Source: an archaeon
Lineage (GTDB): Archaea > Nanobdellota > Nanobdellia > Pacearchaeales > GW2011-AR1
NCBI GenBank assembly: GCA_038121585.1
Contig: JAYONY010000002.1
Location: forward strand, 95,341 to 159,340
Direction of reading: 5' to 3'
Length of the DNA stretch: 64,000 nucleotides
Part shown: positions 36,458 to 63,877 of the stretch, in pieces
Position numbering within the stretch: position 1 is the stretch's first letter
Layout: each line of letters opens with the position of its first letter
The notes under the pieces: generated by a model
What the model saw: the letters and a program-made list of their open reading frames with translations, nothing else
The model's database searches: none
Told to the model about the DNA's origin: nothing
Program-made: the position numbers and the translations under genes

Positions 36458-36459
36458 GA

Positions 36460-36846: not shown

Positions 36847-36848
36847 TG

Positions 36849-37618: not shown

Positions 37619-38110
37619 ATGGAAAACAAACAAGTAGGGTACTTGCTCTTAGGTATTACTGTTCTTCTAATATTTATCATCTACTTGTTTAATGCTGCAT
37701 TGCATGAAATAGTCAATGCTTCATGTTCAGAAGCAGGGCATGGTGACTCCTGTCCAATGTATAATACGATTAATCGACAAACGTATCTTTCCATAGGTAT
37801 TACTTCGCTAGTTGGGTTACTCGGATTATTTATGATTTTCACTAAGCCAGCTAAAGAAGTTATTGTTAAGACAAAAACTGTTACGAAACCTAAGAAGGTC
37901 TTTGATATTTCTGAACTTACAAAAGAAGAGTTACGGGTGTTTGAACTTGTTAAGGAGCAGAAAGCGGTTTTCCAAGCAGATCTTATTGAAAAAACAGGCT
38001 TTGGGAAGGCTAAAATGACTCGTATTATTGATCGTCTAGAGGGGAAGCGTATTGTAGAGCGAAAACGTCGCGGAATGACTAATATTGTAGTGCTGTTAGA
38101 AGAAGATTAA
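37619..38110 (+). CDS. Membrane-tethered winged-helix regulator with Cys/His/Met loop (candidate copper sensor)
   Basis: TM1, loop CSEAGHGDSCPM, TM2, then FQADLIEKTGFGKAKMTRIIDRLEGKRIVERKRRGMTNIVV (wHTH). Paralog at 62344..62838. Confidence 0.6.
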   Translation: MENKQVGYLLLGITVLLIFIIYLFNAALHEIVNASCSEAGHGDSCPMYNTINRQTYLSIGITSLVGLLGLFMIFTKPAKEVIVKTKTVTKPKKVFDISELTKEELRVFELVKEQKAVFQADLIEKTGFGKAKMTRIIDRLEGKRIVERKRRGMTNIVVLLEED

Positions 38111-46103: not shown

Positions 46104-46298
46104 ATGACAGAAAAATCGAAATATACTCGCTCGATAACAATTCGAGTGCCAGAAGATGTATACAAGGCATTAGAGAAGCGTGCAGAGTACAAGAAGAAGT
46201 ATTTTGGCAAGTACAGGCCTGCAGATGTCGTTAGAACGGCTGTGATTAAACACCTTAAGGCTAAAGGCTTGCTTGACAAGGATAAAAATTATCTTTAG
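46104..46298 (+). CDS. Ribbon-helix-helix DNA-binding protein
   Basis: RSITIRVPEDVYKALEKRAE. Trimmed from GTG 46095 to ATG 46104. Its 3' end overlaps the fic stop. Confidence 0.5.
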   Translation: MTEKSKYTRSITIRVPEDVYKALEKRAEYKKKYFGKYRPADVVRTAVIKHLKAKGLLDKDKNYL

Positions 46299-47197
46299 AA
46301 TCGTAGTTCATTCTTCTTGTACAGGTTTACCATAAGTTCTACAAATGGTCGTAGGTTGCCTTTCATTTGTGCTGATTGTAGCGCTTTGTAGTATTTTTGT
46401 TTGGTCTTATTGGGTATGTTTATCATTGGAAGCTTTTCTTTATGTAGGATAAAGTTCATGAGTAGTCTTCCTACTCGTCCATTGCCATCTACAAACGGGT
46501 GTACTGTCTCAAACCCAACGTGCACATAGGCAGCGATAATTACTGGATGTAACTTCTTTTTGTTTTTTGAATACCATGCGAGCAATGCCTTCATTTCTCT
46601 TGAAACTTCTGCTGGTTTTGGAGGTAGCCATTCTACTCCTCTGATAAATACTTGGCTTGTTCTGTACTTGCCAACTTGATCCCTTAAGTGTGGCTTTAAT
46701 GTTTCTTTTACTACAAGTTTGTGTAGGTGACAAATAAAATTCTTGGTGATGTCTCCTTTGTATTTGAGGAGATAGTCAAATGCTTTTTTGTGGTTTAGTG
46801 CTTCGTTGATTTCTCGTAATGATTTGTTGCTTGGTACTCGTTTATCAAAGAGTAAGAATGATGTTTCTTGTAAGGACATTGTATTTCCTTCAATTGCTGT
46901 TGAGTCATAGGTGAAGAGTGAAGTAAATGCTTCATATCTATTCTCATAGGTTGCTTTTGGTTCGTTAGCAAATTCTTTCTTGAGTTTTTCGAGAAAATCT
47001 TTTTCTGTATGTTGTAGAAGATAGGCTAGTGGGGAGAGTTCTTTGTCTGCTTCTATTTCTGCTTCTTTGAGCTCTTTTTTAGAAAGGTTAACTCCTAGGT
47101 ATACGCTTTTACGTTTGACTTTCTTCCCTTCTCTCACTGATCTAATCCTGTAATAGTATTTCTTACTATTTTTTTCTTTAATTTCTGTGAATGCCAT
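46295..47197 (-). CDS. Fic-domain protein (AMPylase family)
   Basis: HPFVDGNGRVGRLL equals HxFx(D/E)GNGRxxR. Confidence 0.85.
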   Translation of the reverse strand: MAFTEIKEKNSKKYYYRIRSVREGKKVKRKSVYLGVNLSKKELKEAEIEADKELSPLAYLLQHTEKDFLEKLKKEFANEPKATYENRYEAFTSLFTYDSTAIEGNTMSLQETSFLLFDKRVPSNKSLREINEALNHKKAFDYLLKYKGDITKNFICHLHKLVVKETLKPHLRDQVGKYRTSQVFIRGVEWLPPKPAEVSREMKALLAWYSKNKKKLHPVIIAAYVHVGFETVHPFVDGNGRVGRLLMNFILHKEKLPMINIPNKTKQKYYKALQSAQMKGNLRPFVELMVNLYKKNELRF

Positions 47198-47208
47198 ATA
47201 CTAATATA

Positions 47209-47534: not shown

Positions 47535-50477
47535 TCATTTTTTGAAGTAAGATAGAAGATGTTTCTGGATATTTCGTTTGTCAAATGTCTTTCCGTGCTT
47601 GCCGTATTTTCCACTTATTCTTGAATGGGTGACTACGAAGAACCAGTCTTTCTTGTATTCTTTAGTTAGTCTCTCTGACTTTTCTACTAATTGTTTCTTA
47701 AATGTCTGCAAGACTTTGCCCGTTTCAACTTCTATCGCTATCTTTTTGCGTCCTACTTGGAAAATAATATCTGGTTTTGTTGTTTCATACAGCCATACTT
47801 TATCTGTGTGCTTTAGTAGAAAGTTTGCGATGTCATAGGTGAGTAGGCAGTGGTGGTTTGATTCATTGCTTCTTGGTTTTATGAGGAAGCGTTCGACGTT
47901 TCCTTCTATTGTTTGATATTCTACATCTTTGAATCCTTTTGATAAGAGGAATTTTCCTTCTTCTAGACTTATGTCTTTGTAAGAATGGAATGGCCATTCT
48001 GGATCGACTTTTATCTGTACTTCTTTGAGTTTCTTTGGTCGTTCAACTGGTTTATGTTTTTCTTTTTGTTGTAGTAGCTCGTCTGGATTTGTGGTGATTA
48101 TTTTGTGTTCTTCTGGTGAGGCAACGATTTGTATTTCTGAGTGTTCATCTTCCATTAGGAGTATACCTTCTCCAACTCCTGCAGTAAGTAAGTGGGCTCG
48201 TTCTGCTTCACTTAAGAAAAATGTTTTCTGGATGTTTTGAATTACTGCTGGCTTTTGTCGCATGAGTAGGGTGTATGAGCTGTTTGCTAGAACTGATTTT
48301 CCTGCGTTGGAGTCTAGCATTCCTTCTACTTCTTGGTTGATGAGGAATAGTGCGAGGTTGAATTTTCTGCAGGTCTTGACTATTTCAAATATGTAGCTTG
48401 CGTCTTCTGCTCGTCCTAGGAGCGACCAAGCTTCATCAATCACTAAGAGCTTACGATCTAATGTTTCCTTCATTTTCATATAGATATAGTCGAGTACGAG
48501 GAACATTACTGTTGGCTTAACTTGTTTGGGCATGGTGCCGATATCAAAAGTTACGAATTGGTTGTTGAAGTTGATGTTTGTGTGTTTGTTGAGGAATGAG
48601 AAAACGCCATCCACGTACATGCTCATTCGAGTGATAAGACTTCGAATAGTTGTCTTTTCCAGTTGGACAGCTTTACGCTCTAGTCGTTTGAGTGCTTTAA
48701 GCACGTCTTCTAGTATTGGTGGTTTGTTATGCCATGTTTTTGGATCGTTAGTTATGCCTTTTGACTCATAAGCTATGGTGAGTGCTTTGTCGATGAATGC
48801 TCGTTGTGGGCTGGTGAGTTCTCCGAGCATGATTTTCATGAGGTCAATAAGGGCTAGTCGTTTTTCGTGGTAGTCGTGTCCCATGAGATCGAGTGGGTTG
48901 ATGATTGTTGTGGAGGTTCTTGAGAGGTTGATTCGTTGGCCGTTGAATCGTTTGGTGAGTGCTTGGTATTCTCCTTGTGGGTCTATGACCATGACTTTGG
49001 TGCCGTTGAGTAGGTAGCGTGAGATGAGTAGTTTTGCCATGTAGCTTTTTCCTGATCCTGAGCTTGCGAGGCATAGTCCGTTTGGGTTTGAGAGGGTGAA
49101 TATGTCTTTGATTATTGGTATGTTGTTTTTGTTTTGTCCGAGCCACACTCCTGTTTTGTCGACTTGTAGGAATGATGAGGTGAAGGGGAAGAATGCTGAT
49201 AGTGCGTTTGTGGTTACGTTGCGTTGTTTTTTGAGTGCGTTGTGTGCGAGTGGTGCGCAGGATTGAAATCCTTGCGTCATCTGAAATGAAGCCTGCTTAG
49301 GGATTATTAATAGGGCGTTAAGTTCTGATTCTATTCGTTTTGTGAGTAGGTCGAGTTCTTCTTTTGTTTTTGCCCTACAACTTACGTAGAGGCTGACGTT
49401 GAAGAGTTTTTCTTTTCCTTTCTGTAGGTTTTTGAGCACTGCTCTGGTGTCTTCGTATTGTATTTCGAGGCTTGGGTTGAGGCTTTCTTTTTGTTTTGCG
49501 GCGTAGAGGTCTGCTCGTTGTTTTTGTAGTTCTTTGTTGAGTGAGATCATCATTGTTTCTATGTCGTAGGGTTCTATGTGTAGTGAGAGGTCGAAGTTGC
49601 CGAGTGAGCTCACGATTTTATCGAGGAATCCTGATTCTACGTTTCGTGGGTAGCCGTGTGCGTGTATTGTTCTGCTGAGTGTGTTGCCTATTTTGATGTA
49701 GTTTGGATTGTTTTCTATGCGTACTGAGGCGAGGTTTTCGACTTCGAAGAAGTTGTGTATGAGTGCTTGTAGGTCGTAGTCTTTGAGTCGTTTGCTTCTC
49801 AGGCCGATGCTGTTGAGTTTGTCTTTGCAAATGTGTGCTTGTATGTTGATATCGGTTTTTTCTGGTATGAGCACGTAGAAGTTGCGGTTCATGACATCGT
49901 GGTCTGATGCTATGCTTTGTAAGTGTTCTTTGTATTTGGTGAATAGGTTCTCGAATTTCTTTGTTTTTTGGAGTCGTTTGGTAAGGCTTTTGAAGTATTC
50001 TTTAAGGTCTAGTTTTTCTGTGTTCATTAATACTTGTATTGGGAAGTCGAGTAAATTCAGGAATTTTTGGAACATCATGATGGTTGCTTCTTGTGATTCT
50101 TTTGGTTTGATTGAGAAGTTGATGGGTGTGATTTTGAGCACTGCTATTTTTCTGCCGTCATTGGTGTGTATGAGGTCGTCTTTGATGGTGTTGAGTGATA
50201 CGAATTTGGCTATTTTTTCGGGGTTGTCTATTCTGCGGGTGAGTAACCAATGATACCAGACTCGTAAGTTGTGATCTAAGTTGAGAAACATAAATCCCGT
50301 AGCGAGTCCGGTTAGCAGTATTGAGTAGAATATTCGTAAGTAGAGTTCCATGCTGGTTTTGAATAAGAGTATGGGGATGAATGGGGTGAATAGGAAGGCG
50401 TAGGCTAGTTGTTTGAATGTGAGTCCGAACATTATTTTCTCATTATATTCGAGTCGTTGTGGTATTTCGTATGCCAT
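47535..50477 (-). CDS. VirB3-VirB4-like T4SS ATPase with C-terminal PD-(D/E)xK-like extension
   Basis: Two N-terminal TMs, Walker A SSGSGKS, LLVIDEAWSLL, FLINQE. The last ~105 aa contain KPDIIF..IAIEVETGK. Confidence 0.75.
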   Translation of the reverse strand: MAYEIPQRLEYNEKIMFGLTFKQLAYAFLFTPFIPILLFKTSMELYLRIFYSILLTGLATGFMFLNLDHNLRVWYHWLLTRRIDNPEKIAKFVSLNTIKDDLIHTNDGRKIAVLKITPINFSIKPKESQEATIMMFQKFLNLLDFPIQVLMNTEKLDLKEYFKSLTKRLQKTKKFENLFTKYKEHLQSIASDHDVMNRNFYVLIPEKTDINIQAHICKDKLNSIGLRSKRLKDYDLQALIHNFFEVENLASVRIENNPNYIKIGNTLSRTIHAHGYPRNVESGFLDKIVSSLGNFDLSLHIEPYDIETMMISLNKELQKQRADLYAAKQKESLNPSLEIQYEDTRAVLKNLQKGKEKLFNVSLYVSCRAKTKEELDLLTKRIESELNALLIIPKQASFQMTQGFQSCAPLAHNALKKQRNVTTNALSAFFPFTSSFLQVDKTGVWLGQNKNNIPIIKDIFTLSNPNGLCLASSGSGKSYMAKLLISRYLLNGTKVMVIDPQGEYQALTKRFNGQRINLSRTSTTIINPLDLMGHDYHEKRLALIDLMKIMLGELTSPQRAFIDKALTIAYESKGITNDPKTWHNKPPILEDVLKALKRLERKAVQLEKTTIRSLITRMSMYVDGVFSFLNKHTNINFNNQFVTFDIGTMPKQVKPTVMFLVLDYIYMKMKETLDRKLLVIDEAWSLLGRAEDASYIFEIVKTCRKFNLALFLINQEVEGMLDSNAGKSVLANSSYTLLMRQKPAVIQNIQKTFFLSEAERAHLLTAGVGEGILLMEDEHSEIQIVASPEEHKIITTNPDELLQQKEKHKPVERPKKLKEVQIKVDPEWPFHSYKDISLEEGKFLLSKGFKDVEYQTIEGNVERFLIKPRSNESNHHCLLTYDIANFLLKHTDKVWLYETTKPDIIFQVGRKKIAIEVETGKVLQTFKKQLVEKSERLTKEYKKDWFFVVTHSRISGKYGKHGKTFDKRNIQKHLLSYFKK

Positions 50478-52474: not shown

Positions 52475-53359
52475 CTAAGTTTCGAAGGAACATTCTTTCC
52501 CAGAGCAGTATTTTTCGCTTTCTAGTTCGAGTGTTGAGTGTTCTATGTTGTGTTTGGCTAGGTTGTTTTTTATGGATTTTCTAATTTTGTCAGGATTCTT
52601 AAGGTATTTATCTTCCACTATCACATGGGCTGTTAAGATGCCTGTTTCCCCTTCTAGTGACCATACGTGAACATCGTGAATGCCAATTACTCCTTTGATG
52701 GTTCGTACTGATTTTTTAATTTTTTCAATGTTTATGTGTTGTGGAACACCTTCGAGTAGCAGGTTAAATGTTTCTCGTATATTTTTTGTAACGCCCCATA
52801 ATACAAATACTGTGAATCCGATAGTCATTATTGGATCTATAATGTGGTTGTCTGAGAATTTGATTAGTATCGATCCAGTTAGCAGGACTATCCATCCTAG
52901 CATATCTTCTAGTAAATGCCATGAGAGTATTTTTTCGTTTTGACTGAGTCCCTTTTTTAATTTTATGAACCCTATGCTGTTTACTATTATGCCAATTATT
53001 GCTACTATTATCATCCCGCTTGCATCGACGTGTTCTGGACTTATTAATCTAGGAATTGTTTTTGATAATATGAATAATGATCCTGCGATTAGTACGATCG
53101 CTGCAAAGAGGGATGATAGGAGTGATAATCTTCTATATCCGAATGTTCTTTTCAAATCGGCTGGTTTATCAGATTTTTTTTCTGCAAACCACGCGACTAT
53201 TAGGACAATGCTATCTCCAAGATCATGTAATGCATCGGCCAATAGGGCTAAACTGTTTGTGAGAATTCCCCCGACTATTTCTATGATTGTAAAGAATATA
53301 TTCAGAAGTGCAGCAAACCCTACATTTTTCGCTCTATGGCCCATAATATAATTTATCAA
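52475..53359 (-). CDS. Cation diffusion facilitator (CzcD/ZitB-like)
   Basis: ALLADALHDLGDS, six TMs, cytoplasmic C-terminal domain. Confidence 0.85.
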   Translation of the reverse strand: MINYIMGHRAKNVGFAALLNIFFTIIEIVGGILTNSLALLADALHDLGDSIVLIVAWFAEKKSDKPADLKRTFGYRRLSLLSSLFAAIVLIAGSLFILSKTIPRLISPEHVDASGMIIVAIIGIIVNSIGFIKLKKGLSQNEKILSWHLLEDMLGWIVLLTGSILIKFSDNHIIDPIMTIGFTVFVLWGVTKNIRETFNLLLEGVPQHINIEKIKKSVRTIKGVIGIHDVHVWSLEGETGILTAHVIVEDKYLKNPDKIRKSIKNNLAKHNIEHSTLELESEKYCSGKECSFET

Positions 53360-53413: not shown

Positions 53414-55345
53414 TTAGATCTTTTTTCTTCTCAATAAATTAGCGTTGGTTACTACGGTGATGCTTGATGCTGCCATTGCAATTTCTGCGATTACTGGGTG
53501 TAGTAGTCCTGCTATTGCGAGTGGTATTGCGATTACGTTGTAGGCGAATGCCCAGAAGAGGTTTTGTTTTATTTTGCTGAATGTTGATCGTGAGAGGTTG
53601 ATTCCTTGTACTACTCCTTCTAGTGATCCTTTTGCGAGTACGATGTCTCCTGCTTCTATTGCTATGTCTGTTCCTGTTCCCATTGCTATGCCTACGTTTG
53701 CTTGTTTGAGTGCTGGTGCGTCATTGATTCCATCGCCTACGAATGCTACCATTCCTTCTTTTTGGAGTGCTTCGACTTTTTTTGCTTTGTCTTCTGGTAG
53801 TACGTTGGCGATTACTTCGTCTATTCCTACTTCTCGTGCTATTGCTTGTGCTGTGCGTTCGTTGTCTCCTGTGATCATGACTGTTGTGTAGCCTTCGTGT
53901 TTGAGACGTACTATTGCTTTTCTTGAGTCGTCTTTTACTGCGTCTGCGACTCCTATTACTCCGAGCACTTTGTTGTTTTCTGCTACTATCATTGTTGTCT
54001 TTCCATCGTTCTCTAGTTTTTCTAGGTGTGGTTTGATTTTTGTGAGTGGTATTTTCTTTTCTTTCATGAGGCGTGCGTTTCCGATGTACATTTGTTTTTT
54101 GTTGATTATTCCTTGTACTCCGCGTCCTCGTAGTATTTTGAATTTGGTTACTTTTTTGTAGTTTTTGATGTTTGCGTGTTCTACTATTGATTTGGCTATT
54201 GGGTGTTCGCTGAGTTTTTCTAGTGATGCTGCTTTTGCTATCATGTCTTGTTCTTTTGATTTTGTGAGTGCGTGGATGTTTGTGACTTCTGGCTTTCCTT
54301 TTGTTATAGTCCCTGTTTTGTCGAATACTACTGTTTTGACTTCTTTCATTGTTTGTATTGCTTCTCCTTTTCGTATGAGGATGCCTTTTTTTGCGCCGAT
54401 GCCTGAGCCTACCATAAGTGCTATTGGTGTTGCGAGTCCTAGGGAGCAGGGGCATGCTATGACGAGTACTGAGATTGCTACACCTACCGCGCGGCTGATG
54501 TCTTGTGTGAAGATCCACCAGTTGAAGAATGTGAGGAGTGCTACCATGAGGATTATTGGTACGAAGACGTTGGTGATTTTATCAGCTACTTTTTGTATTG
54601 GTACTTTTGTTCCTTGTGCTTCTTCGACGAGTTCTATGATGTGGGCTAGGAATGTGTCTCCGCCGACTTTTGTTGCTTTGATGTAGAGTATGCCGTCTTG
54701 GTTTATTGTTGCTCCGATGACGGTACTTTTTGGTTTTTTGTCTGTTGGTATGCTTTCGCCTGTGACCATGCTTTCATCTACTGAGCTATCTCCTTTTGTG
54801 ACTATTCCGTCTGTTGGGATTTTTTCTCCTGGTCGTACTACCATTATATCTCCAATTTTTACATCTTCTATTGGGACTTCGATTTCTTCTTTTCCTTGTA
54901 GTATTATTGCTTTTTTTGCTCCTAGTTCTAGTAGTTTTCGTATTTCTGAGCTTGCTCGTCCTTTGGCTTTTGATTCGATGTATTTTCCGGTGATGAATAT
55001 GGTCATGATCATTGCTGATACTCCTGAGTAGTCTTCAAAGCCATAGAATGAGAGTATTCCTGTAAAGTAGGCTATTACTGTTCCTAGTCCTATGAGGGAG
55101 TCCATATTGAAGTAGAATGTGTAGAATCCTCTGATGCCACTTCGTATTGTCTGCCAGCCAATTATGAATATTACGGGGAATCCAAGTATGAGTAGTGCTA
55201 TTGGCATTGTTCCCATCGGTATGATTGGCATACCAAACATCATTCCGGAGTACATGATTGCCATTATGGGGATGGTGAGTGACCATGCCCATATGAGCTT
55301 CCGCTTCCAACTTTTGATTTCTTTTTCTTCTATTGATTCTTCCAT
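53414..55345 (-). CDS. copA: Copper-translocating P1B-type ATPase, copy 2
   Basis: [32 protein letters not shown]. Collinear with 33605..35539. Confidence 0.9.
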
Positions 55346-55557
55346 TATTCTATTTTGACTACTTTGTATCCTGCTTTTGCGACTGCTGCTTTTAGGTCGT
55401 CTTCGCTTACTGAGTCTTCTGCTTCGATTATTCCTTTGTGTGTCATGACGCTTACGCGTACTTCTTTCACGCCGTCGACTTTTTTGAGGCTTTTTTCAGC
55501 GTTTCCTCCACATGCTGCGCAGTGCATTCCTTCTATGGTTATTTTTATTTTTTTCAT
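55345..55557 (-). CDS. copZ: Copper chaperone, HMA domain, copy 2
   Basis: Trimmed to ATG 55557 ([18 protein letters not shown]). ATGA overlap with the arsR-like stop. Confidence 0.85.
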
Positions 55558-55922
55558 TGCTTCCCTCCTTTTGATGATTGTATTATGTGGATGCAATGTG
55601 CGTTCATGTGGTCTTCGATTAGGTCCATTAGTGGTTTGATTGTTGTTTTATTGAGGGCGTAGTATCTGTATTTTCCTTTAACTTTTACGTGTACGAATCC
55701 GCATTTTTTTAGTCGTGCTAGGTCGTGTGATATTGCTGTTTGTTCTGCTTCTAGGTGTTTTGTGAGTTCTGTTACGTTCATCTCTTGTTTTCGTAGTGTA
55801 TTGATTATTTTGATTCTTGATTCTGATACGAGTGTTCCGAAGAATAGTTTGTAGGCGTCAAGTACTTCTGTTTCATCATGTCCTTTTGTGTGACATTTTT
55901 TTAATATGTTTTTATTTATCAT
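55554..55922 (-). CDS. ArsR/SmtB-family metalloregulator
   Basis: LVSESRIKIINTLRKQEMNVTELTKHLEAEQTAISHDLARLKKCGFV. Confidence 0.8.
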   Translation of the reverse strand: MINKNILKKCHTKGHDETEVLDAYKLFFGTLVSESRIKIINTLRKQEMNVTELTKHLEAEQTAISHDLARLKKCGFVHVKVKGKYRYYALNKTTIKPLMDLIEDHMNAHCIHIIQSSKGGKQ

Positions 55923-55942
55923 ATGATATTTTAAGTCATATG

Positions 55943-56422
55943 TTATTTAAGTTTTTGTGTGGTTTTAGGAAATAATTTTTTGTTCATCCACCAAATATTT
56001 GTTCCCAGTAATACGGCCATTAGTAGTTGTATTTCGACTCCATTCCAAGGTAGGACTGCGAATGAGAATGAAATTCCTAAAATGCTTAAAACTACTTGTA
56101 GCAAGCCGCCTACACATACGGGGCAGACTCCAACGAATAATCCTCCGACTGCACCTGCGCTTGCTACTGTGGCTCCTTTTTTACAGCTTTTGCGTAGTGC
56201 ATAGTGGTAATAGGCGTAGCTTAGGTTTATTGATACTAGGACAGCGATGATTATTGAGAGGACTAATGATGTTATGAGTTTAAACCAGCTTGTTGTTTGT
56301 GCATATTCTAGCGCTACAGAGAAGATTGTTATAAAGTCACTGAGCCATACAGCTAGAGAAAAATATACTATGAATCCCAGTATTGTTATATATTTGTAAG
56401 GTTTTTGTAGTAAGAATTTCAT
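55943..56422 (-). CDS. Four-TM membrane protein with intramembrane CPxC motif, copy 2
   Basis: GVCPVCVGG. Paralog of 35742..36236. Confidence 0.5.
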   Translation of the reverse strand: MKFLLQKPYKYITILGFIVYFSLAVWLSDFITIFSVALEYAQTTSWFKLITSLVLSIIIAVLVSINLSYAYYHYALRKSCKKGATVASAGAVGGLFVGVCPVCVGGLLQVVLSILGISFSFAVLPWNGVEIQLLMAVLLGTNIWWMNKKLFPKTTQKLK

Positions 56423-56575
56423 GTTACTTTATTAGTAGTGTTCCTCCCATGTCATGGTGTTTTGGACTGCATATTACGTTACAAAAGAATGGATTGTCCT
56501 CCTCTATCTACTATGGATGATGTTCTAGTAACAACTATCAAGAAGCCAATTCCTGCTTTTGTTGATGTTTTCATT

Positions 56576-56962
56576 TTATTGTACTATTAACTTCCCTGCT
56601 CCCATTCCCATGCTACATGCAAAGGTGTAGGTTCCTGGTTTATCAATAGTAAATTCTAGTACATCGTTTGGTGTTGCAAGGTATTTTTTGATATTGGTTC
56701 CTCTAACTACAAGGTCTCTAAAACATCCGTACACGCTATCGTCTAGTTGTAGTCGTACTGGTTTTCCAGCATCTACCGTAACTGTTTCTGGATAATAATT
56801 GTAGTCTTTCATGCCTATGGAGAGTTCTTGTGCATCGCCAGTTCCTACTGCTACTACATTACCTGACACTCCTTGGCCAGAGTCTCCTTTTACCATAAAT
56901 ACACCTCCTCCTACAATTAATAAGAAGATCGCAATACCATACAATGTTGATTTGCTAACCAT
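56576..56962 (-). CDS. Membrane-anchored cupredoxin-like protein, copy 2
   Basis: YNYYPETVTVDAGKPV and YTFACSMGMGAGKLIV. Confidence 0.65.
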   Translation of the reverse strand: MVSKSTLYGIAIFLLIVGGGVFMVKGDSGQGVSGNVVAVGTGDAQELSIGMKDYNYYPETVTVDAGKPVRLQLDDSVYGCFRDLVVRGTNIKKYLATPNDVLEFTIDKPGTYTFACSMGMGAGKLIVQ

Positions 56963-56986
56963 TATCTATGCCTCCTTTCAAGGTTT

Positions 56987-57670
56987 TCATTGGAATAGTG
57001 CGCTCCTTGGCCCGAATACCATGAGCCAGATCGTGAGGACTGTTAGTACAAAGCTTAGTACGAGTGTTAGGAATTGGTCTTCTGTATGTGTTCTTTCTTC
57101 GTTTTTGGTTTCTTTGTATAGCATGTAGTTGAGTCCTGCTAGTATTGCTCCGCATACGATGAATACAATTACTCCTGCTGCTTTTAGGTTATCATTATAC
57201 ATCATGACTGCGGTCATTGCTCCCATGAGCCCTCCCATGAATCCTGCCATTAGGCCTTCCATAACTCCCATGACGCCGCAGCATTTCCCTTTCCATATAC
57301 CTAAGAAAATGCCTACTGCCATACCGAAAACACCGCCCCAAAACATGCCGTTGGTCGCTCCCGTATAAAATCCTGCTAGGAATCCTGACATCATGCCTAC
57401 TGTCATTCCGATCATCATTCCGGTCATACATGGAAATGCTTTGTACGCGCGGACTTGCCGTATTGAGGGCATTACTAATGCGTAACTGAGTATTGCAAAA
57501 AATAAGAAGAATCCGTACTTTGGAATGAAGTTGTCGATGTATTGTAGTTTTAGGAAGTAAAACAAACCAAGTGTAATGAATGAAGTAAGTAGAGAGAGAA
57601 ATATCGTTTTTAGTAATTCGCCTTCAACACGAGTGCCTTGTAATTCTTTTAGAAATTCTTTTGTTGTCAT
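56987..57670 (-). CDS. Uncharacterised Met/Gly-rich polytopic membrane protein, copy 2
   Basis: Trimmed to ATG 57670 (MTTKEFLKEL), with ATGA overlap with the upstream gene. MTGMMIGMTVGMMSGFLAGFYTGATNGMFWGG, KCCGVMG. Confidence 0.55.
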   Translation of the reverse strand: MTTKEFLKELQGTRVEGELLKTIFLSLLTSFITLGLFYFLKLQYIDNFIPKYGFFLFFAILSYALVMPSIRQVRAYKAFPCMTGMMIGMTVGMMSGFLAGFYTGATNGMFWGGVFGMAVGIFLGIWKGKCCGVMGVMEGLMAGFMGGLMGAMTAVMMYNDNLKAAGVIVFIVCGAILAGLNYMLYKETKNEERTHTEDQFLTLVLSFVLTVLTIWLMVFGPRSALFQ

Positions 57671-57894
57671 CTTTTCTGTAGTTGTTTTTGTATTAGTATG
57701 AATAGGAGCACTATTATTAGTATTAAAACGATACTCATTAGGATCCCGTTGATTGACCCTCCCCACATGTGTCCATACCATTGGCCCATCATCCCATGGT
57801 GATCATAGAAATCCTCTCCTGAGTGTGCGGTGGTCAAACTTATTAGATAGGCAAATGCTGCAGTGATACTAAGACCTATTTTTTTAGTTTTCAT
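57667..57894 (-). CDS. Small secreted/anchored His/Met-rich protein
   Basis: Signal-like N-terminus, HSGEDFYDHHGMMGQWYGHMWGG, C-terminal TM. Confidence 0.5.
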   Translation of the reverse strand: MKTKKIGLSITAAFAYLISLTTAHSGEDFYDHHGMMGQWYGHMWGGSINGILMSIVLILIIVLLFILIQKQLQKR

Positions 57895-57931
57895 AGCGTT
57901 TGGTAATCAAAAAACTATTTAACTGCTTTTG

Positions 57932-57945
57932 TGAAACTAGTTTCG
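57932..57945. promoter_or_regulatory. Operator-like palindrome TGAAACTAGTTTCG (one mismatch) upstream of cassette B
   Basis: Lies 9 nt upstream (minus orientation) of TTAAATAG. Embedded in a ~43-bp block repeated at 60830..60872. Confidence 0.55.
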
Positions 57946-58111
57946 TTTAACAAGATTGATTGTTGTTAACTTTCTATTAGTTTTAAAATGTTCCTCTCTG
58001 AATCATGATCAATGTTTATCTGGCAATTATTTTTTTAGAAAGTGCAAGTTTTGTAATTGTGTTGATGTCAAATTTATCGGTGTTGGTTTGCCTCTTTGAT
58101 GATGAGTGCAT

Positions 58112-58489
58112 TTACCGAAGTTGTTTTTTGCTTCTCCAATCAAGACAACTATACATTACAAGTGCTATAATCGGGAATTGCAGGTAGCTAAAGTCCCAGG
58201 TACCTGCAGTGATTCCTGTGAGTGTCATAGGTATAAGTGGCCAAAGTCCTGTGTAGAGACTCACCCACCATTTCCGATAAGTAAAAAGTGCTACTGCTGC
58301 TGCAATGTCCAGCGCACCTACTATTCTAACAAGCAGCTGTGATGCGGGGAATCCTGATTCTTGGATAAGCATTGTCATTCCTGGACTGCCGAGTAGTGCT
58401 GCCATTCCATGTACGAAGAAATTGTAGATGAGATATACTGCTGCTAGTGAGCCTAGTCCTTTTTTTGCAAGTTGTACGTAGTTGTTCAT
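58112..58489 (-). CDS. Four-TM membrane protein (paralog of 62848..63333)
   Basis: GLWPLIPMTLTGI aligns with GMWPLVPTTLTFI. Confidence 0.45.
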   Translation of the reverse strand: MNNYVQLAKKGLGSLAAVYLIYNFFVHGMAALLGSPGMTMLIQESGFPASQLLVRIVGALDIAAAVALFTYRKWWVSLYTGLWPLIPMTLTGITAGTWDFSYLQFPIIALVMYSCLDWRSKKQLR

Positions 58490-58971
58490 GGTAACACTAT
58501 GAGTTTTCCGTAATGGTTATGATGGCCTGGACCGCACATGACTGAACACCCATAGGTATATTCTCCTGGTGCTGGTGCCATGAATTCCCCAACTGTTGTT
58601 TTTCCGGGTTCTATGCGCATATTAAAGTTAAGTTGTGGTATTGCAATGCCGTGTGCTACATCTTTGCTTGTTGCTTTAATTCGTATGAGCTCTCCTGTTC
58701 TAACAGTAATTGTTGGTTCGCTCCAATCATATTGCCATGCTTCAAGGTTGATTTCTCGTGTGTTGCAATCTCCCATGTAGCCACCGCCCATGTAGTGACA
58801 TGGTGTGCCTGCCATTTCTCGCGCTGGGTCTGTTGGTAAGATTTGGCCGCTTAGGCCTTCAGCTTCGATTGCTAATGCATTGCCAGTAATACTCCCTGAC
58901 TGAGTTATGAACAAGCCAACAGCTACGATGACTACAAACATGCCTATGCCTATTTTAGTTGTTTTCTCCAT
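58486..58971 (-). CDS. Membrane-anchored cupredoxin with CuA-type ligand spacing
   Basis: DVAH-x34-CSVMCGPGHHNH gives H-x34-C-x3-C-x3-H-x2-H, counted directly. Also PCHYMGGGYMGDC. Confidence 0.6.
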   Translation of the reverse strand: MEKTTKIGIGMFVVIVAVGLFITQSGSITGNALAIEAEGLSGQILPTDPAREMAGTPCHYMGGGYMGDCNTREINLEAWQYDWSEPTITVRTGELIRIKATSKDVAHGIAIPQLNFNMRIEPGKTTVGEFMAPAPGEYTYGCSVMCGPGHHNHYGKLIVLP

Positions 58972-58984
58972 ATGCTTGCTCCTT

Positions 58985-60784
58985 TCATGCTACTGTAAAG
59001 CTTGTCATCATTCCGGCTTCGAGGTGTTCTGCTATATGGCAGTGCATCATCCACTCGCCTGGATTGGTGACGTCTACAAGTATGTCTACAGTTGAGCCTA
59101 TTGGTACGAGTACCGTATCCTTCCACACTTTATTATCGACAGGCTCCCCATCTATATGAGTTATAATAAATCTTTGTCCGTGTAGGTGTATGGGGTGTTG
59201 CATTGGGTGCATTGATTCGGGATCGTTGAAGAGGCGTATTTTTACAATGTCTCCGATGCTTGCGGTCATGCTGATGTCCATGTTTGTTGCTCCGCTTGCA
59301 GTGTCGAGTATTTCCCAAGTTACTTGGTCTCCTGGCGCGCGCATGTTCATCTCATCTTCCCACTCAATACGCTCTTCGTGTTCTTCTGCTTCTGCTTCGA
59401 GTGCTACTCTTTCTTCTTCTGTGCAATCGCCCATTACAATGCCTCCCATTTCATGGCAGGGTAATGTTGCCATTGCATCCATGAAGTCTGTAAGATCAAC
59501 GTTGAGATTAAGCTCATAATCGACTGCTTTATCGAAGTATGGTGCAAAGTCATTTATGTCTGCTCGGATTGTTGGGTTAGTTAGATCGTTGAAGAATTGT
59601 TCTGAGTAGTCATCTATCTCTGTTGTCTCTTCAACGGTGATTGTGCTCAACACGTATGACTTGTGAGGGTTCACGTTGAGCAGTGTGTAAGTGCCTGCAT
59701 CTGCAAAGTATACATCTACAATGTAGCGTTCTGCTGGTGCGATGATAAGTTCATCAATTAATGTTTCTGTTTCATATTGGCCGAGGTCTCCGCCGACTAG
59801 TTTCATCTGCGCTCCTGGAATGCTGAGTTTGTAGGGTCGCACATTAGCCACGTTTGTGATATAGTAACGAACCACTTCTCCTTCATTAGCTGTTTGGCGG
59901 TGATCTACATCTCCATTAACTAACATTACATTTCCGAATCTGCCCATGACTGCGAAATTTGCGTGTTCTCCTCCGAATGGTACGATACTTCCATCGTCAC
60001 CTAGGAGAAGGTCATCTAGCACAATAAGCTCTTCTCGATTGACTGGATTGTAAGCTTCAACTGGTATTACGAGCATGTTGCCTGCCATGCCTGCATCTTG
60101 TTGTATGTCTTCTCTGATGTGCGGGTGGTACCAGAAGATTCCATCATCGGGGAAGTATAGTTCGTATTCGAAGGTGTCTCCTGGTTGCATTGGCGGTTGG
60201 GAAACATCTGGCACTCCATCGTTTGCGAGGTCATGTCGTAGTCCGTGCCAATGTACTGTTGTTGGAAGGTCGATATTGTTAGTAAACACTACTTTAATTG
60301 TTGAGTCTTGTCGCACACGTAGTGCTGGTCCCGGAATCATGCCATTGTACCCGTACATGATAAGCTCTTCACCATTAATTTTCTTAGTGATAATGTCTGC
60401 TGTCATAGTGTATGTTTCGCCATCTGCAATGTCAACAATCGTACTACTTTGTACTGGTGTTAGTTCTGAAGCCGCGCGGCTTTGGCCTGGCAGGAAGTCT
60501 GCTCCAATGGTTGATTCAAATTGATTAGGTTGCTCTTCTAAGCGTTCAGCAAGTTTATTATAGGGCTCACATCCTTGCATTTCAGACATGTACAAGCAAT
60601 GTTCGTACATGAACTGCTCGTTTTGATCAAGCTCTGAAAGGCTTGTTACACTATCAAACTCGTCTGCGGGGAGGTTGAGTTCCGCGACCATTGAATGAGC
60701 ATCTCCTTCCTGAGAATCAAGGATATAACCCAGTGAGATTACAATTGCAAGTAGTGCTAATATGAAAATTCCTTTTTTATCCAT
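58985..60784 (-). CDS. Multicopper oxidase with acidic Cys/His/Met insert
   Basis: HWHGL, WYHPH, HPIHLHG, HCHIAEHLEAGMM. Insert with PCHEMGGIVMGDC. Confidence 0.85.
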   Translation of the reverse strand: MDKKGIFILALLAIVISLGYILDSQEGDAHSMVAELNLPADEFDSVTSLSELDQNEQFMYEHCLYMSEMQGCEPYNKLAERLEEQPNQFESTIGADFLPGQSRAASELTPVQSSTIVDIADGETYTMTADIITKKINGEELIMYGYNGMIPGPALRVRQDSTIKVVFTNNIDLPTTVHWHGLRHDLANDGVPDVSQPPMQPGDTFEYELYFPDDGIFWYHPHIREDIQQDAGMAGNMLVIPVEAYNPVNREELIVLDDLLLGDDGSIVPFGGEHANFAVMGRFGNVMLVNGDVDHRQTANEGEVVRYYITNVANVRPYKLSIPGAQMKLVGGDLGQYETETLIDELIIAPAERYIVDVYFADAGTYTLLNVNPHKSYVLSTITVEETTEIDDYSEQFFNDLTNPTIRADINDFAPYFDKAVDYELNLNVDLTDFMDAMATLPCHEMGGIVMGDCTEEERVALEAEAEEHEERIEWEDEMNMRAPGDQVTWEILDTASGATNMDISMTASIGDIVKIRLFNDPESMHPMQHPIHLHGQRFIITHIDGEPVDNKVWKDTVLVPIGSTVDILVDVTNPGEWMMHCHIAEHLEAGMMTSFTVA

Positions 60785-60849
60785 CGGTTTAGTTCTGTCT
60801 TTTTTAGGTATGTTTTTTTTATGATCAAAGAACTATTTAATTGCTTTTG

Positions 60850-60863
60850 TGAAACTAGTTTCG
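60850..60863. promoter_or_regulatory. Operator-like palindrome TGAAACTAGTTTCG overlapping the stop codon of the upstream oxidase gene
   Basis: The TAG stop of 60855..62246 lies inside the palindrome. A TATA-like TTAAATAG follows, then ATG 60784. Confidence 0.55.
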
Positions 60864-62246
60864 TTTAACAACTTCTACTATGCTTAACATTCCTGCTTCT
60901 GCATGTTCTAATATGTGACAGTGAAAAACCCATCTTCCAACGTCTTCTGCTATGAATGCGATGTCAACTTCTTCTCTGCTGTTTATCATTACTGTGTCTT
61001 TCCATCCTCTTGCTTTTTCAGGGATTCCATTTCGTGATAAGATTATGAATTTTTGTCCGTGTAGGTGCATTGGGTGTGGCTGGCCTTGTGTGTTTTTAAT
61101 TCTGAATTTGACGATTTTTCCTTCTTGGATTGTAAATGTTTCTGGATTTTCTGGAAATGCTTTGTTGTTGATTGTCCAACGTAGATTCATATGTCCTGCC
61201 ATTACTCCTATGAGGTCGGCTTGATAGTCAGGTTCTTTTTGTAGTAATGGTTCCATATCTAGTGTTTGTTCAAAAGTTTCTAATCCGTTGGTATCAATTT
61301 TTTCATCACTTGTGATAAGTGTGGCGATTTGAGTTGAACCTCTAGAAGTGTGATGGGTGAGTGTTATCGATTCTTGAGTGGTTTCTGGTAAGAGAATATC
61401 ATAGCGCTCTCCAGGGCTGATTGTTAGGAGGTTTGTCATATAGTGCTCTGAAGGTCCAATATCCATACCTACCACTGTGAATTGCTCTCCTCCAAATTGT
61501 AGGTTGAAGCTGCGTGCGTTTGCTGTGTTAACAATACGTAGGCGGTTATTTTCAAGCTGAATTGTGGGTTTTTCTTTTCCGTTTACAAGCAGTATGTTTC
61601 CGAATCGTCCGTGCATGACTCCTAGGTTAAAGCTTCTGAATTCGAAATCGTTTCCTAAGAGGGCATCATCAAGTACAAGTATGTTTCCTGGTGGTATTTG
61701 TGTGTTTTCTTCAATTAGTAGTACTCCTTGGAGTCCTGATTCGACTTGTTTGTGTGCATCAACGTGACTATGGTACCAATAAAGTCCAGGGTTTCTAAGT
61801 TCTAGTTCGTATGTAAATGACTCTCCTGGCAGTATTGGTTCTTGAGTCACTTCTGGTACGCCATCTTCAACGTTAGCAAGCTGCAAGCCATGCCAGTGAA
61901 CTGTTGTTGGTTCATCAAGGTTGTTGTGCACAATAACGTTCTGTGTAGTTCCTACTGCGCCTTTTATGAGGGGTCCGGGTATTTGTTGATTGTATGAGAA
62001 AACCGTTGTCTTCTTTCCTTCAATGAATTCATATCTTTCCTTTGAGATTGTAAGTTCAAAATCTCTTGGAGTGTTTTGGGCGCTATGTGAGGAGTAATCG
62101 GCGGCACGTACTGTTTCTTCATTTATGTTTACTTGAGTGCTTTCGCTATTCAAGAATATAAGGGTTAGGAGTAATGCAGTCACTGCTAATGCGAGCAATG
62201 TATTTCGGATAGTATTTTTTCGTATCGTAAAAATATTTCTTGTCAT
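60855..62246 (-). CDS. Multicopper oxidase (CueO/CopA-like)
   Basis: HWHGL, WYHSH, HPMHLHG, HCHILEHAEAGM. Confidence 0.85.
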   Translation of the reverse strand: MTRNIFTIRKNTIRNTLLALAVTALLLTLIFLNSESTQVNINEETVRAADYSSHSAQNTPRDFELTISKERYEFIEGKKTTVFSYNQQIPGPLIKGAVGTTQNVIVHNNLDEPTTVHWHGLQLANVEDGVPEVTQEPILPGESFTYELELRNPGLYWYHSHVDAHKQVESGLQGVLLIEENTQIPPGNILVLDDALLGNDFEFRSFNLGVMHGRFGNILLVNGKEKPTIQLENNRLRIVNTANARSFNLQFGGEQFTVVGMDIGPSEHYMTNLLTISPGERYDILLPETTQESITLTHHTSRGSTQIATLITSDEKIDTNGLETFEQTLDMEPLLQKEPDYQADLIGVMAGHMNLRWTINNKAFPENPETFTIQEGKIVKFRIKNTQGQPHPMHLHGQKFIILSRNGIPEKARGWKDTVMINSREEVDIAFIAEDVGRWVFHCHILEHAEAGMLSIVEVVKRN

Positions 62247-62283
62247 GTTTTGTTTAGGAGGCTTTTTTTATTAAGCTCTTTTA

Positions 62284-62297
62284 TGAAACTAGTTTCA
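62284..62297. promoter_or_regulatory. Perfect palindrome TGAAACTAGTTTCA in divergent promoter (oxidase / regulator)
   Basis: Lies between ATG 62246 (minus) and ATG 62344 (plus). Confidence 0.6.
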
Positions 62298-62343: not shown

Positions 62344-62838
62344 ATGGATAATAAGAAGACTGGCTATTTGTTGTTAGGGGTAGTAGTTTTGATTGTGATT
62401 ATAATTTATATGTTCAATAACGCATTACATGATATTGTTAATGCGAGCTGTAGTGAGGCTGGACATGGTGATAGTTGTCCAATGTATAATACTATTAATC
62501 AACAAACTAATCTTTCATTAGTTATTGCGGGGTTTGTTGTGGTTGTTGCTTTATTTCTTATTTTTTCAAAACCTCAAACCAAAACTGTTGTGGAAACTAA
62601 GATAGTTGAGAAAGAACCTATCAAGAAAGAATTTGATCTTTCTGATTTGAAGCAAGAGGAAAAGAAAGTGTTTGGACTAATTAGAAATAGCAAGGCAATT
62701 TTTCAGGCTGAGTTGATCGAAAAAACAAGTTTTGGTAAGGCAAAAATGACCCGTATTATTGATAGGTTGGAGGGTAAGGGTTTTGTAGAAAGAAAACGAC
62801 GTGGAATGACTAATGTGGTTGTTCTTCTAGAAAAATAA
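62344..62838 (+). CDS. Membrane-tethered winged-helix regulator, copy 2
   Basis: Identical loop CSEAGHGDSCPM (62449..62484). wHTH FQAELIEKTSFGKAKMTRIIDRLEGKGFVERKRRGMTNVVV. Confidence 0.6.
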   Translation: MDNKKTGYLLLGVVVLIVIIIYMFNNALHDIVNASCSEAGHGDSCPMYNTINQQTNLSLVIAGFVVVVALFLIFSKPQTKTVVETKIVEKEPIKKEFDLSDLKQEEKKVFGLIRNSKAIFQAELIEKTSFGKAKMTRIIDRLEGKGFVERKRRGMTNVVVLLEK

Positions 62839-62847
62839 TTCTTAAAA

Positions 62848-63333
62848 CTACTTCTTACTTTTTTGTTTCTTATATTTTGTAAAGTAGATAAGCAAAGCTA
62901 GCGTGGTTGAAAGGATGAATATCCACTCTATGTGTTGAGAGTCTATGAATGTGAGTGTTGTTGGGACTAATGGCCACATTCCTGCGTAGTAAAGCATCCA
63001 TTTTTTCATTTTGAAGTTGAGACCGAAGAATAGCAGGGTGTCTACTAGTCCAACAAGAGTAACCAATACCTTTGCAAAAGAGCCTGTTATGCCAAGGGGT
63101 CCTAGTAGGGTAACAAAGATTTCTGGTCGTAATAATGCTTGAATTCCATGGAACAGGAAGATTATCGAAAGTATGAACGCGAGAATTGGTTCTCTAAGGT
63201 TCTTGAAGTTTTTACGTCTGTATGCCATAATTGCAAGAGTTATTAGGCTTATTGTCCAGAATAATATTTTGTCAAAGGATGTTTTAGTTTCTTCTAATGA
63301 TGCTTTGTTAGCTGGGTCGATGGATTCTCCCAA
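62848..63333 (-). CDS. Four-TM membrane protein (paralog of 58112..58489)
   Basis: Shared WPL(I/V)P motif and topology. Confidence 0.45.
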   Translation of the reverse strand: MGESIDPANKASLEETKTSFDKILFWTISLITLAIMAYRRKNFKNLREPILAFILSIIFLFHGIQALLRPEIFVTLLGPLGITGSFAKVLVTLVGLVDTLLFFGLNFKMKKWMLYYAGMWPLVPTTLTFIDSQHIEWIFILSTTLALLIYFTKYKKQKSKK

Positions 63334-63421: not shown

Positions 63422-63877
63422 CTAATTGTTAAATCTCTTAGCCATTATCATTTTACGCACAACCCAAAATACAACAAAAGGCAGGATTACTAATTGAATT
63501 ATTGGAACAACTCCGATATTAAGAATGGGTAATAGGGGCATAAACTCTGAATAACCCCATCTCACCAAGACTTGAGTATTCATTATCTCGATTGTTATCG
63601 CAATCAATATCGCAATAGGCACTAAAACGTAAACGTCTGACCTTGTCATACGCTTAAACCAATACTGATCTCTATTTCTAACATAACCTATTAGGTAAAA
63701 CAATACCATGATTATCCCATCGCCTAAAGTCGCACCAATTAGCTTTGGCAAGTACTCATTTAAAGAGAGGCTTCCGCACGTGTAAAGGGGGCTTTGTAAA
63801 ACCTCCCACAAAAAGTGAATGAAAACCCCTACGATGAAAATATACAAGCTTACGATAAAGACTTTATTCTGTTTCAT
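63422..63877 (-). CDS. Polytopic membrane protein
   Basis: 151 aa, four helices, ATG start. Confidence 0.45.
   Translation of the reverse strand: MKQNKVFIVSLYIFIVGVFIHFLWEVLQSPLYTCGSLSLNEYLPKLIGATLGDGIIMVLFYLIGYVRNRDQYWFKRMTRSDVYVLVPIAILIAITIEIMNTQVLVRWGYSEFMPLLPILNIGVVPIIQLVILPFVVFWVVRKMIMAKRFNN

Follow-up and report, generated by a model that had tools for sequence, protein, structure and literature searches.

Copper regulators of the CopR/CopT type have been described in archaea, including PF0739 of Pyrococcus furiosus, SSO2652 of Saccharolobus and TON_0836 of Thermococcus onnurineus, and are TRASH-domain proteins of the Lrp type (PMC7830388). In P. furiosus, CopR recognizes a semi-palindromic motif, TTNNCAWWWTGNNAA, located directly upstream of the B recognition element (BRE) at nearly all of its targets, and it activates copA while staying bound (PMC7830388). 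Transmembrane transcription regulators (TTRs) are another recognized class that is widespread in archaea (PMC10269533), of which ArnR and ArnR1 of Sulfolobus, controlling archaellum and pili genes, have been characterized (PMC13286277). Here we analyzed a 64-kb stretch of DNA (hereafter, the window; positions 95,341 to 159,340 of contig JAYONY010000002.1) from an archaeon of the Pacearchaeales, in which a 14-bp palindrome (TGAAACTAGTTTCR) stands in front of copper-handling genes. We consider it likely that this palindrome serves as the operator for a winged helix-turn-helix (wHTH) protein, small and tethered to the membrane, which would bind it as a dimer and govern a copper-handling regulon. 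The palindrome and the membrane-anchored protein together probably form a previously undescribed copper switch.

The locus shares with the CopR system the control of copA and copZ, a regulator gene divergent from copA, an operator directly upstream of the BRE and a clustered regulon (PMC7830388). The operator position and the divergent regulator are functional resemblances and not a sign of family membership. CopR is soluble and cytoplasmic, combines an Lrp/AsnC-type HTH with a TRASH domain and oligomerizes on DNA, whereas the wHTH protein is predicted to be membrane-anchored, is MarR-like (DUF7343), would carry its putative sensor outside the cell and has an unrelated operator sequence. Neither of the two wHTH proteins encoded in the window had a TRASH or Lrp match in Pfam or NCBIfam. 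Their architecture is that of a TTR, i.e., at least one transmembrane segment and a DNA-binding domain in one polypeptide, and like ToxR, CadC, BcrR and ArnR/ArnR1 the wHTH protein would be a one-component regulator that remains inserted in the membrane while bound to DNA and responds to extracytoplasmic or membrane signals. Periplasmic Cys pairs modulate ToxR and CadC. The latter two have an N-terminal OmpR-type wHTH, one transmembrane helix and a large periplasmic domain, and ArnR has an N-terminal HTH and C-terminal transmembrane helices. The wHTH protein is built in reverse, with an N-terminal transmembrane hairpin, a tip of only ~30 residues and a C-terminal wHTH of the MarR type. In the literature searched we found no TTR with a copper regulon or with a defined archaeal operator at the BRE, and searches on the palindrome string, DUF7343 and DPANN copper regulators returned nothing relevant. 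The system would be a one-component regulator of the membrane-tethered kind whose sensor, operator and regulon are new, in a poorly known lineage.

Matches to TGAAACTAGTTTCR were found in the window at 37571, 57932, 60850 and 62284 only, in agreement with an earlier reading made from the letters alone (hereafter, the sequence-only reading), and the chance expectation was 0, with no match in 100 dinucleotide-preserving shuffles of the window. Allowing up to two mismatches added one match (0.59 expected by chance), a divergent intergenic site at 364..377 (TGAAACTACTTTTA, two mismatches), which was rejected as it is at chance level and lacks the CAAAAG/TATA geometry of the others. A repeat search independently picked out the promoter module, 32 nt long, as a family with four copies in the window. 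The sequence-only reading placed all four sites directly upstream of minus-strand operons, which is correct, but two of them are also common to divergent plus-strand wHTH promoters. These two copies, at 37571 and 62284, are the perfect palindromes, and their location in the divergent promoters of the two wHTH genes is the strongest local clue, which that reading had missed. Its statement that the palindrome marks every promoter of the copper island stands for the four copper operon promoters and not for the neighboring genes at 62848..63333 and 63422..63877 or the CDF gene at 52475..53359, for which the window scan found no palindrome of their own. The sites at 57932 and 60850 fall in a near-identical block that had been noticed as ~43 bp at 57908 and 60830; the comparison of 57899–57974 with 60817–60892 gave 82% identity over 76 nt, including a ~50-nt core with three differences that takes in the 3'-terminal codons of the gene for the 463-aa oxidase. 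The reported overlap of the 60850 site with the oxidase stop codon is exact, the TAG (60855–60857) of this open reading frame (ORF), which ends at 60855, being the central TAG of the palindrome.

To place the palindrome in a wider context, we used two sets of loci, both consisting of fragments of up to ~14 kb with the taxonomic labels of their metagenome-assembled genome (MAG) records. The protein-selected set comprised 80 loci (790 kb) from one-genome-per-species contigs of DPANN archaea (Woese-, Pace- and Nanoarchaeota), and the motif-selected set comprised at least 120 loci from a metagenome scan with TGAAACTAGTTTCAYAAAAG, i.e., selected by DNA alone. Specificity was covered over the 64-kb window and ~1.5 Mb of fetched loci. 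The 14-mer was almost invariant in both sets. It was detected in 70 of the 80 protein-selected loci, and its 12-nt core was exact in 74/87 sites within the 790 kb, where ~0.01 exact 14-mers were expected from base composition. The palindrome started 47–76 nt upstream of the wHTH ATG in ~45 of the protein-selected loci, and in others it followed the wHTH stop codon or headed a nearby operon. Counted by gene, it was within 160 nt upstream of 50 of 93 wHTH genes and just after the stop codon of three more. Most loci had the same synteny (CopA<, CopZ<, ..., cupredoxin<, Met-rich transmembrane protein<, palindrome, wHTH>), with a Cys-rich ~225-aa protein as the alternative first gene.

Among the matches listed, the first gene on the BRE side encoded the Met-rich membrane protein at 53 loci, the Cys-rich protein at 33, a cupredoxin at three, and CopA and the wHTH protein at one each; it was unclassified at 16 loci, and at four there was no ORF or the contig ended. 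The unclassified first genes include those for a Cys-rich 79-aa secreted peptide (motif SCSQGSCNGSCS…CGCGK), DsbB (Pfam) and a thioredoxin-like protein. In the same listed matches, the divergent gene was that of the wHTH protein in 62 of the 112 cases with enough sequence, and loci of at least 5 kb contained the wHTH gene in 46/57 and an ArsR gene in 11/57. ArsR genes were present in 23/80 protein-selected loci and in ~20–30% of loci overall. The sequence-only reading had proposed a single regulon under a dimeric DNA-binding protein, with the membrane-tethered wHTH protein as the best candidate binder. Both proposals gained support, as the palindrome is kept to the letter before the same copper gene sets in at least about 200 independent loci and the wHTH gene accompanies it far more often than the ArsR gene. 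The ~225-aa Cys-rich protein, the second most common target, is membrane-anchored (…CEYCCGAEA…ACGCAHS…), has no Pfam match and is absent from the window; it comes first after the palindrome in loci L011, L014, L015, L027 and others.

The promoters share a rigid layout. Read on the minus strand, exactly 9 nt separate the palindrome from the TATA box at 4/4 window sites (Table 1), as the fixed distance given in the sequence-only reading implied, and across loci the order on the operon side was palindrome, CAAAAGnnC, TTTATATA and the ATG 37–38 nt after the palindrome. The promoters of the protein-selected loci had a consensus of TGAAACTAGTTTCA, CAAAAGcgc and TTaTATA, the ATG at +37/+38 in 60/89 promoters, and ~0.1 bit at each position outside these elements. 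The motif-selected promoters had the ATG at +37 to +39 in 84/107 cases among the matches listed. Generic promoters, profiled upstream of 743 further ORFs of these loci, were A-rich at −36 to −32 and had their TATA box at −29 to −22, counted from the ATG. By these positions, CAAAAG occupies the generic BRE position and the genes are leaderless, and leaderless mRNAs are in wide use in these archaea. Counted from the start codon of such genes, the operator then covers about −51 to −38 and abuts the BRE without a gap, which, with the rigid spacing, supports the proposal of the sequence-only reading that the bound protein acts at the BRE/TATA.

CAAAAG is unusually well conserved for a BRE and was considered as a part of the operator; it was read as the BRE instead, since it coincides with the generic BRE of the 743 upstream regions and is absent on the regulator side. 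There the spacing is variable, with the ATG 34–48 nt after the palindrome (mode ~41 nt) and ~3–5 nt separating the operator from a BRE-like element. Of 134 unique promoters, 130 had just one dyad, placed upstream of the BRE. The other four had a second imperfect palindrome 28–35 nt downstream of the main one, over the TATA-to-start region, and a second operator at this place, which would argue for repression, was therefore rejected as a general feature. Promoters with a second palindrome were noted in L008 (5911/5939), L195 (1519/1547), L012, L050 and L066. The 599-aa oxidase gene is the sole one of the four window targets with a leader (60785–60849), and this leader has no obvious Shine-Dalgarno sequence.

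In each of the two wHTH proteins of the window, two hydrophobic helices (at approximately residues 7–25 and 58–75) flank the loop CSEAGHGDSCPMY, and a Lys-rich linker leads on to the winged helix at the C-terminus. Following the positive-inside rule, the acidic loop would face outward, and the linker and the wHTH would be cytoplasmic. Both belong to Pfam DUF7343 (31.0 and 29.8 bits, cut-off 27.6), and their homologues carry PF24034 throughout. The protein encoded at 62344..62838 also matched Pfam MarR (31.2 bits, cut-off 24.6), with its paralogue at 37619..38110 just below (24.4 bits). In the AlphaFold2 model of wHTH B (mean predicted local distance difference test score of 79), a hairpin (3–39 and 46–74) is followed by a disordered segment (75–103) and the winged helix (104–161), and the top Foldseek matches were MarR-DNA complexes, led by that of E. 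coli, 5h3r (31% identity, 67 aligned columns, root-mean-square deviation of 1.4 Å). The winged-helix fold and the sequence match are likenesses to MarR proteins (E. coli MarR, OhrR), which are dimers on palindromes. Canonical MarR proteins are soluble, measure about 140–150 aa and build their dimer interface and ligand pocket from helices at both ends of the wHTH. The wHTH protein of the window ends right after the wing and has no such helices. Given the transmembrane hairpin and disordered linker before the wHTH in the model, and the lack of flanking helices, it is not a canonical MarR, and if the model is right its dimerization must come from the membrane part. Copper-driven oxidation of Cys inactivates E. 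coli MarR itself.

More than 1000 close relatives (58–77% identical) were found in MAGs of Pacearchaeota, Woesearchaeota and Nanoarchaeota, and a profile search of 1.84 billion representatives (E ≤ 1e-10) returned 461 clusters, nearly all full-length (~150–175 aa). C36, C45 and P46 were invariant in a 25-sequence alignment, as were residues of the recognition helix and wing (K..K..R....LE.....E.KRRGMTN.VV), a segment that is near-invariant in the form KAKMTRIIDRLE...ERKRRGMTN. The Cys pair, C-x8-C-P-M in the window proteins, is kept as C-x(5-14)-C in the loop of 117/123 full-length representatives of the wider family. A His between the cysteines is usual; both the loop His and the Met vary across the family, with only the two Cys and the Pro invariant. 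CueR, of the MerR family, binds Cu(I) with two cysteines (C-x7-C). The Cys pair is the likeness between CueR and the wHTH protein; unlike the latter, CueR has another fold, is cytoplasmic with no sensor outside the cell, and works by distorting the DNA between −35 and −10.

A second paralogue type, with the loop CFIQHGDVxSCEMY and the helix SKARMTRIIDKLE, regularly follows the ArsR gene and often ends a palindrome-controlled operon (L003, L005, L006, L041, L051–L053, L065, L073 and others). Its recognition helix is almost identical, and it may share the operator. More distant 164–165-aa types with other Cys motifs and recognition helices occur nearby without the palindrome. We found no common palindrome as an operator of the distant paralogues (helix SKAKLSYVLQELE or the 164-aa CxxC-rich type), for which there were too few sequences, and no informative protein differences when changes at the operator centre (CTAG to CTGG/CCAG) were compared with the recognition helix.

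Distant relatives of the wHTH protein, 30–41% identical, are still found beside the exact palindrome, which adds to the case for this protein as the binder. The exact 14-mer stands 5 nt after the stop codon of P0133 (37% identity; L201), followed by 7 nt and TTATATAT, and upstream of a Shine-Dalgarno-led CopZ-CopA pair. In L202 and L203, which contain P0137 (41%), it lies between divergent genes for an HMA-DsbD-cupredoxin fusion and an HMA protein, and 38 nt separate it from the ATG. The P0155 gene (36%; L204–L206) ends in a TGA stop codon that makes up bases one to three of the 14-mer, and in L209 the 14-mer follows the stop codon of P0186 (30%) by 10 nt. P0177 (32%; L212–L214) is encoded after a CopA gene and has a variant site, TGAAACCAGTTTGA. 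P0174 (35%; L207 and L208) has a diverged helix and wing (GRRKITKIVNRLE...RKVKGKAK), and neither the palindrome nor copper genes were found near it. From these loci we conclude that the operator tracks the conserved DNA-reading head over a wide evolutionary range. The palindrome thus has the general marks of an operator read by a sequence-specific regulator, being over-represented, symmetric, fixed in its promoter position, kept between species whose flanking DNA has drifted, and found together with the gene of the putative regulator. Stop codons are repeatedly overlapped or abutted by the operator, i.e., at 60855–60857 in the window, ~3448 in L204–L206, 1919 in L201 and 893 in L209.

Based on these patterns, a mechanism can be proposed in which the two-helix hairpin of the wHTH protein would span the membrane, with a conserved Cys-x(n)-Cys-Pro-Met, usually accompanied by His, at its outward tip. 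The cytoplasmic C-terminus, a MarR-like winged helix whose recognition helix and wing hardly vary, would as a dimer read the half-sites TGAA...TTCA. As the operator lies against the BRE, the bound protein would touch or compete with transcription factor B (TFB) and the TATA-binding protein (TBP). In this archaeon the regulon would comprise two CopZ/CopA export operons, with their Met-rich membrane proteins and cupredoxins, and two multicopper-oxidase units; the regulator genes at the two divergent sites probably belong to it as well. The content of the regulon and the invariant extracytoplasmic Cys pair point to copper, or copper-driven thiol chemistry, as the signal, which the Cys pair would sense outside the cell.

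Several points speak against this account. Its basis is comparative genomics throughout, and ten of the 80 protein-selected loci lack the palindrome, some being cut at contig ends and some holding the second paralogue type. The extracytoplasmic Cys pair may be a plain disulfide, and the His is not invariant, which argues against direct sensing of Cu(I). ArsR genes lie inside a minority of the controlled operons, and ArsR/SmtB operators are TGAA-N6-TTCA-like inverted repeats, so that the shape of the motif alone does not exclude an ArsR protein. Activation is further opposed by the near-consensus BRE and TATA box of the regulated promoters, a feature more typical of repressed archaeal promoters, and by the second imperfect site over the TATA-to-start region of L008, L012, L050 and L066. 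Both features would suit a wHTH protein that acts as a repressor, blocking TFB/TBP at the BRE or holding the promoter at the membrane until copper at the outer loop releases or re-orients it and the operons are de-repressed. Promoters with CAAAAG and TTTATATA look intrinsically strong, the operator meets the BRE without a gap on the operon side, and the variable gap of ~3–5 nt on the other side would let expression of the regulator gene continue. De-repression is how many copper sensors (CsoR, CopY) work, as do most MarR proteins. Repression is a possibility that we take seriously and do not expect. Of the tethered one-component regulators that have been characterized (ToxR, CadC, BcrR), most activate transcription, nearly all of the unique promoters have the single dyad upstream of the BRE, and archaeal sites at that place are typically activating, as is the CopR motif at copA of P. 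furiosus (PMC7830388). On account of this placement, the likeness to CopR and the record of tethered regulators, we lean slightly, in what is close to an even call, toward activation through TFB/TBP recruitment, given that the wHTH protein binds the palindrome.

The signal might also be something other than copper, with the wHTH protein binding the palindrome and its Cys pair responding to extracytoplasmic thiol/disulfide (oxidative) stress or to another soft metal such as Ag, Cd, Zn or Hg. The variation of the loop His and Met would allow this; DsbB, the thioredoxin-like protein and the Cys-rich secreted peptides are under the operator in some genomes, and a CDF transporter gene follows CopA here. 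We regard it as unlikely, as the core regulon is copper-specific, with Cu(I)-exporter signatures in CopA, MxCxxC in CopZ, cupredoxins and multicopper oxidases. A switch of the thiol/disulfide type that is driven by copper or by oxidants deserves to be kept in view. The ArsR/SmtB protein encoded at 55554..55922, named by the sequence-only reading as the other candidate, would leave a different role to the wHTH protein. It is a clear member of a metalloregulator family (NCBIfam HTH_metalloreg, 69 bits), its gene is inside a palindrome-controlled operon here as in part of the other loci, and ArsR/SmtB proteins are small winged-helix dimers on inverted repeats at metal-efflux operons. However, they are soluble, with metal sites in the α3N/α5 helices, and from genome to genome the occurrence of the ArsR gene does not follow that of the palindrome. 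Cop operon 1 has no ArsR gene, nor do most loci that show the whole palindrome-to-CopA operon, the gene travels with that of the CxxC membrane protein as an accessory pair, and in distant lineages the palindrome stays with the wHTH gene where no ArsR gene is adjacent, all of which makes an ArsR binder very improbable. Hardly credible is a palindrome that is no regulator site at all, be it a promoter element of a structural or basal kind, a hairpin or terminator in RNA, or a sequence that serves recombination or belongs to a mobile element. The copper clusters do have integrases and a conjugation-type ATPase as neighbors, and the 60850 copy is at the 3' end of a gene. The palindrome is nevertheless restricted to copper-type promoters, is absent upstream of the 743 other ORFs (regions that had been filtered for the palindrome), and keeps its place relative to the BRE/TATA in at least about 200 loci irrespective of the mobile-element context. 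As it is upstream of TATA, it is not transcribed from the promoters that it marks; with this, no T-run and no Rfam match in the 33–64 kb region, an RNA element was rejected.

If the wHTH protein is the binder, this would suggest that extracellular copper is sensed by a one-protein membrane-to-DNA switch, unlike the soluble TRASH-type CopR known from other archaea. DPANN archaea are mostly uncultured and their gene regulation is nearly unstudied, and the regulatory unit, conserved over hundreds of genomes, offers a testable set of operator, promoter geometry, regulator and regulon. It would explain what DUF7343 proteins of this kind do, and tie unannotated families (the Met-rich membrane protein, the Cys-rich ~225-aa protein and the Cys-rich secreted peptides) to copper handling. 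The BRE-abutting operator with its rigid spacing would be a clean model for the communication of archaeal regulators with TFB/TBP. More tentatively, and with the chances somewhat below even, DPANN and related archaea may possess a phylum-wide, hitherto undescribed class of minimal membrane-tethered metalloregulators of ~160 aa, in which the Cys-x(n)-Cys-Pro-Met tip senses extracellular copper directly and leaderless promoters are switched through the 14-bp operator against the BRE without a cytoplasmic relay. This would make it the first case in archaea of a characterized transcription factor that is also a membrane-bound metal sensor, and would provide a ready-made pair of inducible promoter and regulator for organisms in which genetic tools are still lacking.

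The genes behind the four operators are listed in Table 1. P1B-1 Cu(I)-exporting ATPases are defined by the motifs CPC, N-x6-YN-x4-P and M-xx-SS, and direct reading of both CopA translations found CPC in TM6, N-x6-YN-x4-P in TM7 and M-xx-SS in TM8 (TM, transmembrane helix). The Met-rich membrane protein of ~227 aa (CMTGMMIGM...GKCCGVMG...), the product of the most common first gene under the operator, was matched by neither Pfam nor NCBIfam, is nearly always followed by a cupredoxin, and is probably a core component of copper handling.

Table 1 Operators, promoter elements and genes of the copper-handling region, in window coordinates.
Feature	Position	Strand	Remarks
Operator O1	37571..37584		Perfect palindrome TGAAACTAGTTTCA; between divergent cop operon 1 (-) and wHTH gene A (+)
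Operator O2	57932..57945		Plus-strand TGAAACTAGTTTCG; upstream of cop operon 2
Operator O3	60850..60863		TGAAACTAGTTTCG; upstream of the 599-aa multicopper oxidase (MCO) operon
Operator O4	62284..62297		Perfect palindrome; between divergent 463-aa multicopper oxidase gene (-) and wHTH gene B (+)
BRE-like cacaagcgc and TATA TTAAATAAA	37553..37570	-	Cop operon 1; ATG 37532, 38 nt after palindrome
BRE-like caaaagcag and TATA TTAAATAG	57915..57931	-	Cop operon 2; ATG 57894, 37 nt after palindrome
BRE-like caaaagcaa and TATA TTAAATAG	60833..60849	-	MCO operon (599-aa oxidase); ATG 60784, 65 nt after palindrome
BRE-like taaaagagc and TATA TTAATAAAAA	62265..62283	-	463-aa oxidase gene; ATG 62246, 37 nt after palindrome
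wHTH gene A, 163 aa	37619..38110	+	Candidate binder; divergent partner at 37571
wHTH gene B, 164 aa	62344..62838	+	Candidate binder; paralogue of A (68% identical); divergent partner at 62284
Cop operon 1	33605..37532	-	Headed by site 37571
Met-rich membrane protein, 227 aa	36849..37532	-	Cop operon 1
Cupredoxin	36460..36846	-	Cop operon 1
Small Met/Gly-rich protein	36233..36457	-	Cop operon 1
CxxC membrane protein	35742..36236	-	Cop operon 1
CopZ	35539..35745	-	Cop operon 1
CopA	33605..35539	-	Cop operon 1
Cop operon 2	53414..57894	-	Paralogous to cop operon 1, plus ArsR gene; headed by site 57932
Small Met/Gly-rich protein	57667..57894	-	Cop operon 2
Met-rich membrane protein	56987..57670	-	Cop operon 2; start at 57670 probable
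Cupredoxin	56576..56962	-	Cop operon 2
CxxC membrane protein	55943..56422	-	Cop operon 2
ArsR/SmtB-family metalloregulator	55554..55922	-	Inside cop operon 2; alternative candidate binder
CopZ	ends 55345	-	Cop operon 2
CopA	53414..55345	-	Cop operon 2
CDF gene	52475..53359		After CopA of cop operon 2
MCO operon	58112..60784	-	Headed by site 60850
599-aa multicopper oxidase	58985..60784	-	MCO operon
CuA/COX2-like cupredoxin	58486..58971	-	MCO operon
DoxX-like membrane protein	58112..58489	-	MCO operon
463-aa multicopper oxidase gene	60855..62246	-	Headed by site 62284

The ArsR protein of cop operon 2 has a His/Cys-rich C-terminus (DHMNAHCIHI). Across loci, the ArsR gene and that of the ~160-aa CxxC membrane protein form a near-constant pair inserted between the cupredoxin gene and CopZ (16–23 of L001–L080). 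The cop operons are old duplicates of each other and not recent copies, and so are the wHTH genes, with 71–79% DNA identity (33604–35760 with 53413–55572, 36599–36693 with 56715–56809, and 37937–38104 with 62668–62835). The promoters at 57932 and 60850 differ from these in being a near-identical, recent duplication.

Mobile-element genes flank or adjoin the copper clusters (32289..33464, 44314..45531, 46295..47197 and 47535..50477), comprising two tyrosine-recombinase (Phage_integrase) genes, a Fic gene and a gene for a 980-aa TraG/VirB4-like ATPase of the conjugation type. Each integrase gene is preceded by a GC-rich 58-nt repeat (33519–33576 and 45591–45648, 74% identical), and the copper island may be, or contain, an integrative element. 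A tRNA-linked integration of the island was rejected, with no tRNA gene detected in the window by ARAGORN. Just upstream of the Fic start, 47204–47319 holds two 48-nt direct repeats, each with the inverted pair TACGTCTACAT…ATGTAGACGTA, which may be a separate operator. Between the copper clusters and less than 4 kb apart are two class-I aminoacyl-tRNA synthetase-like genes of the W/Y type (38769..39809 and 42290..43381), one with a Pfam tRNA-synt_1b match and the other with HLGH and KMGKS motifs identified by eye.

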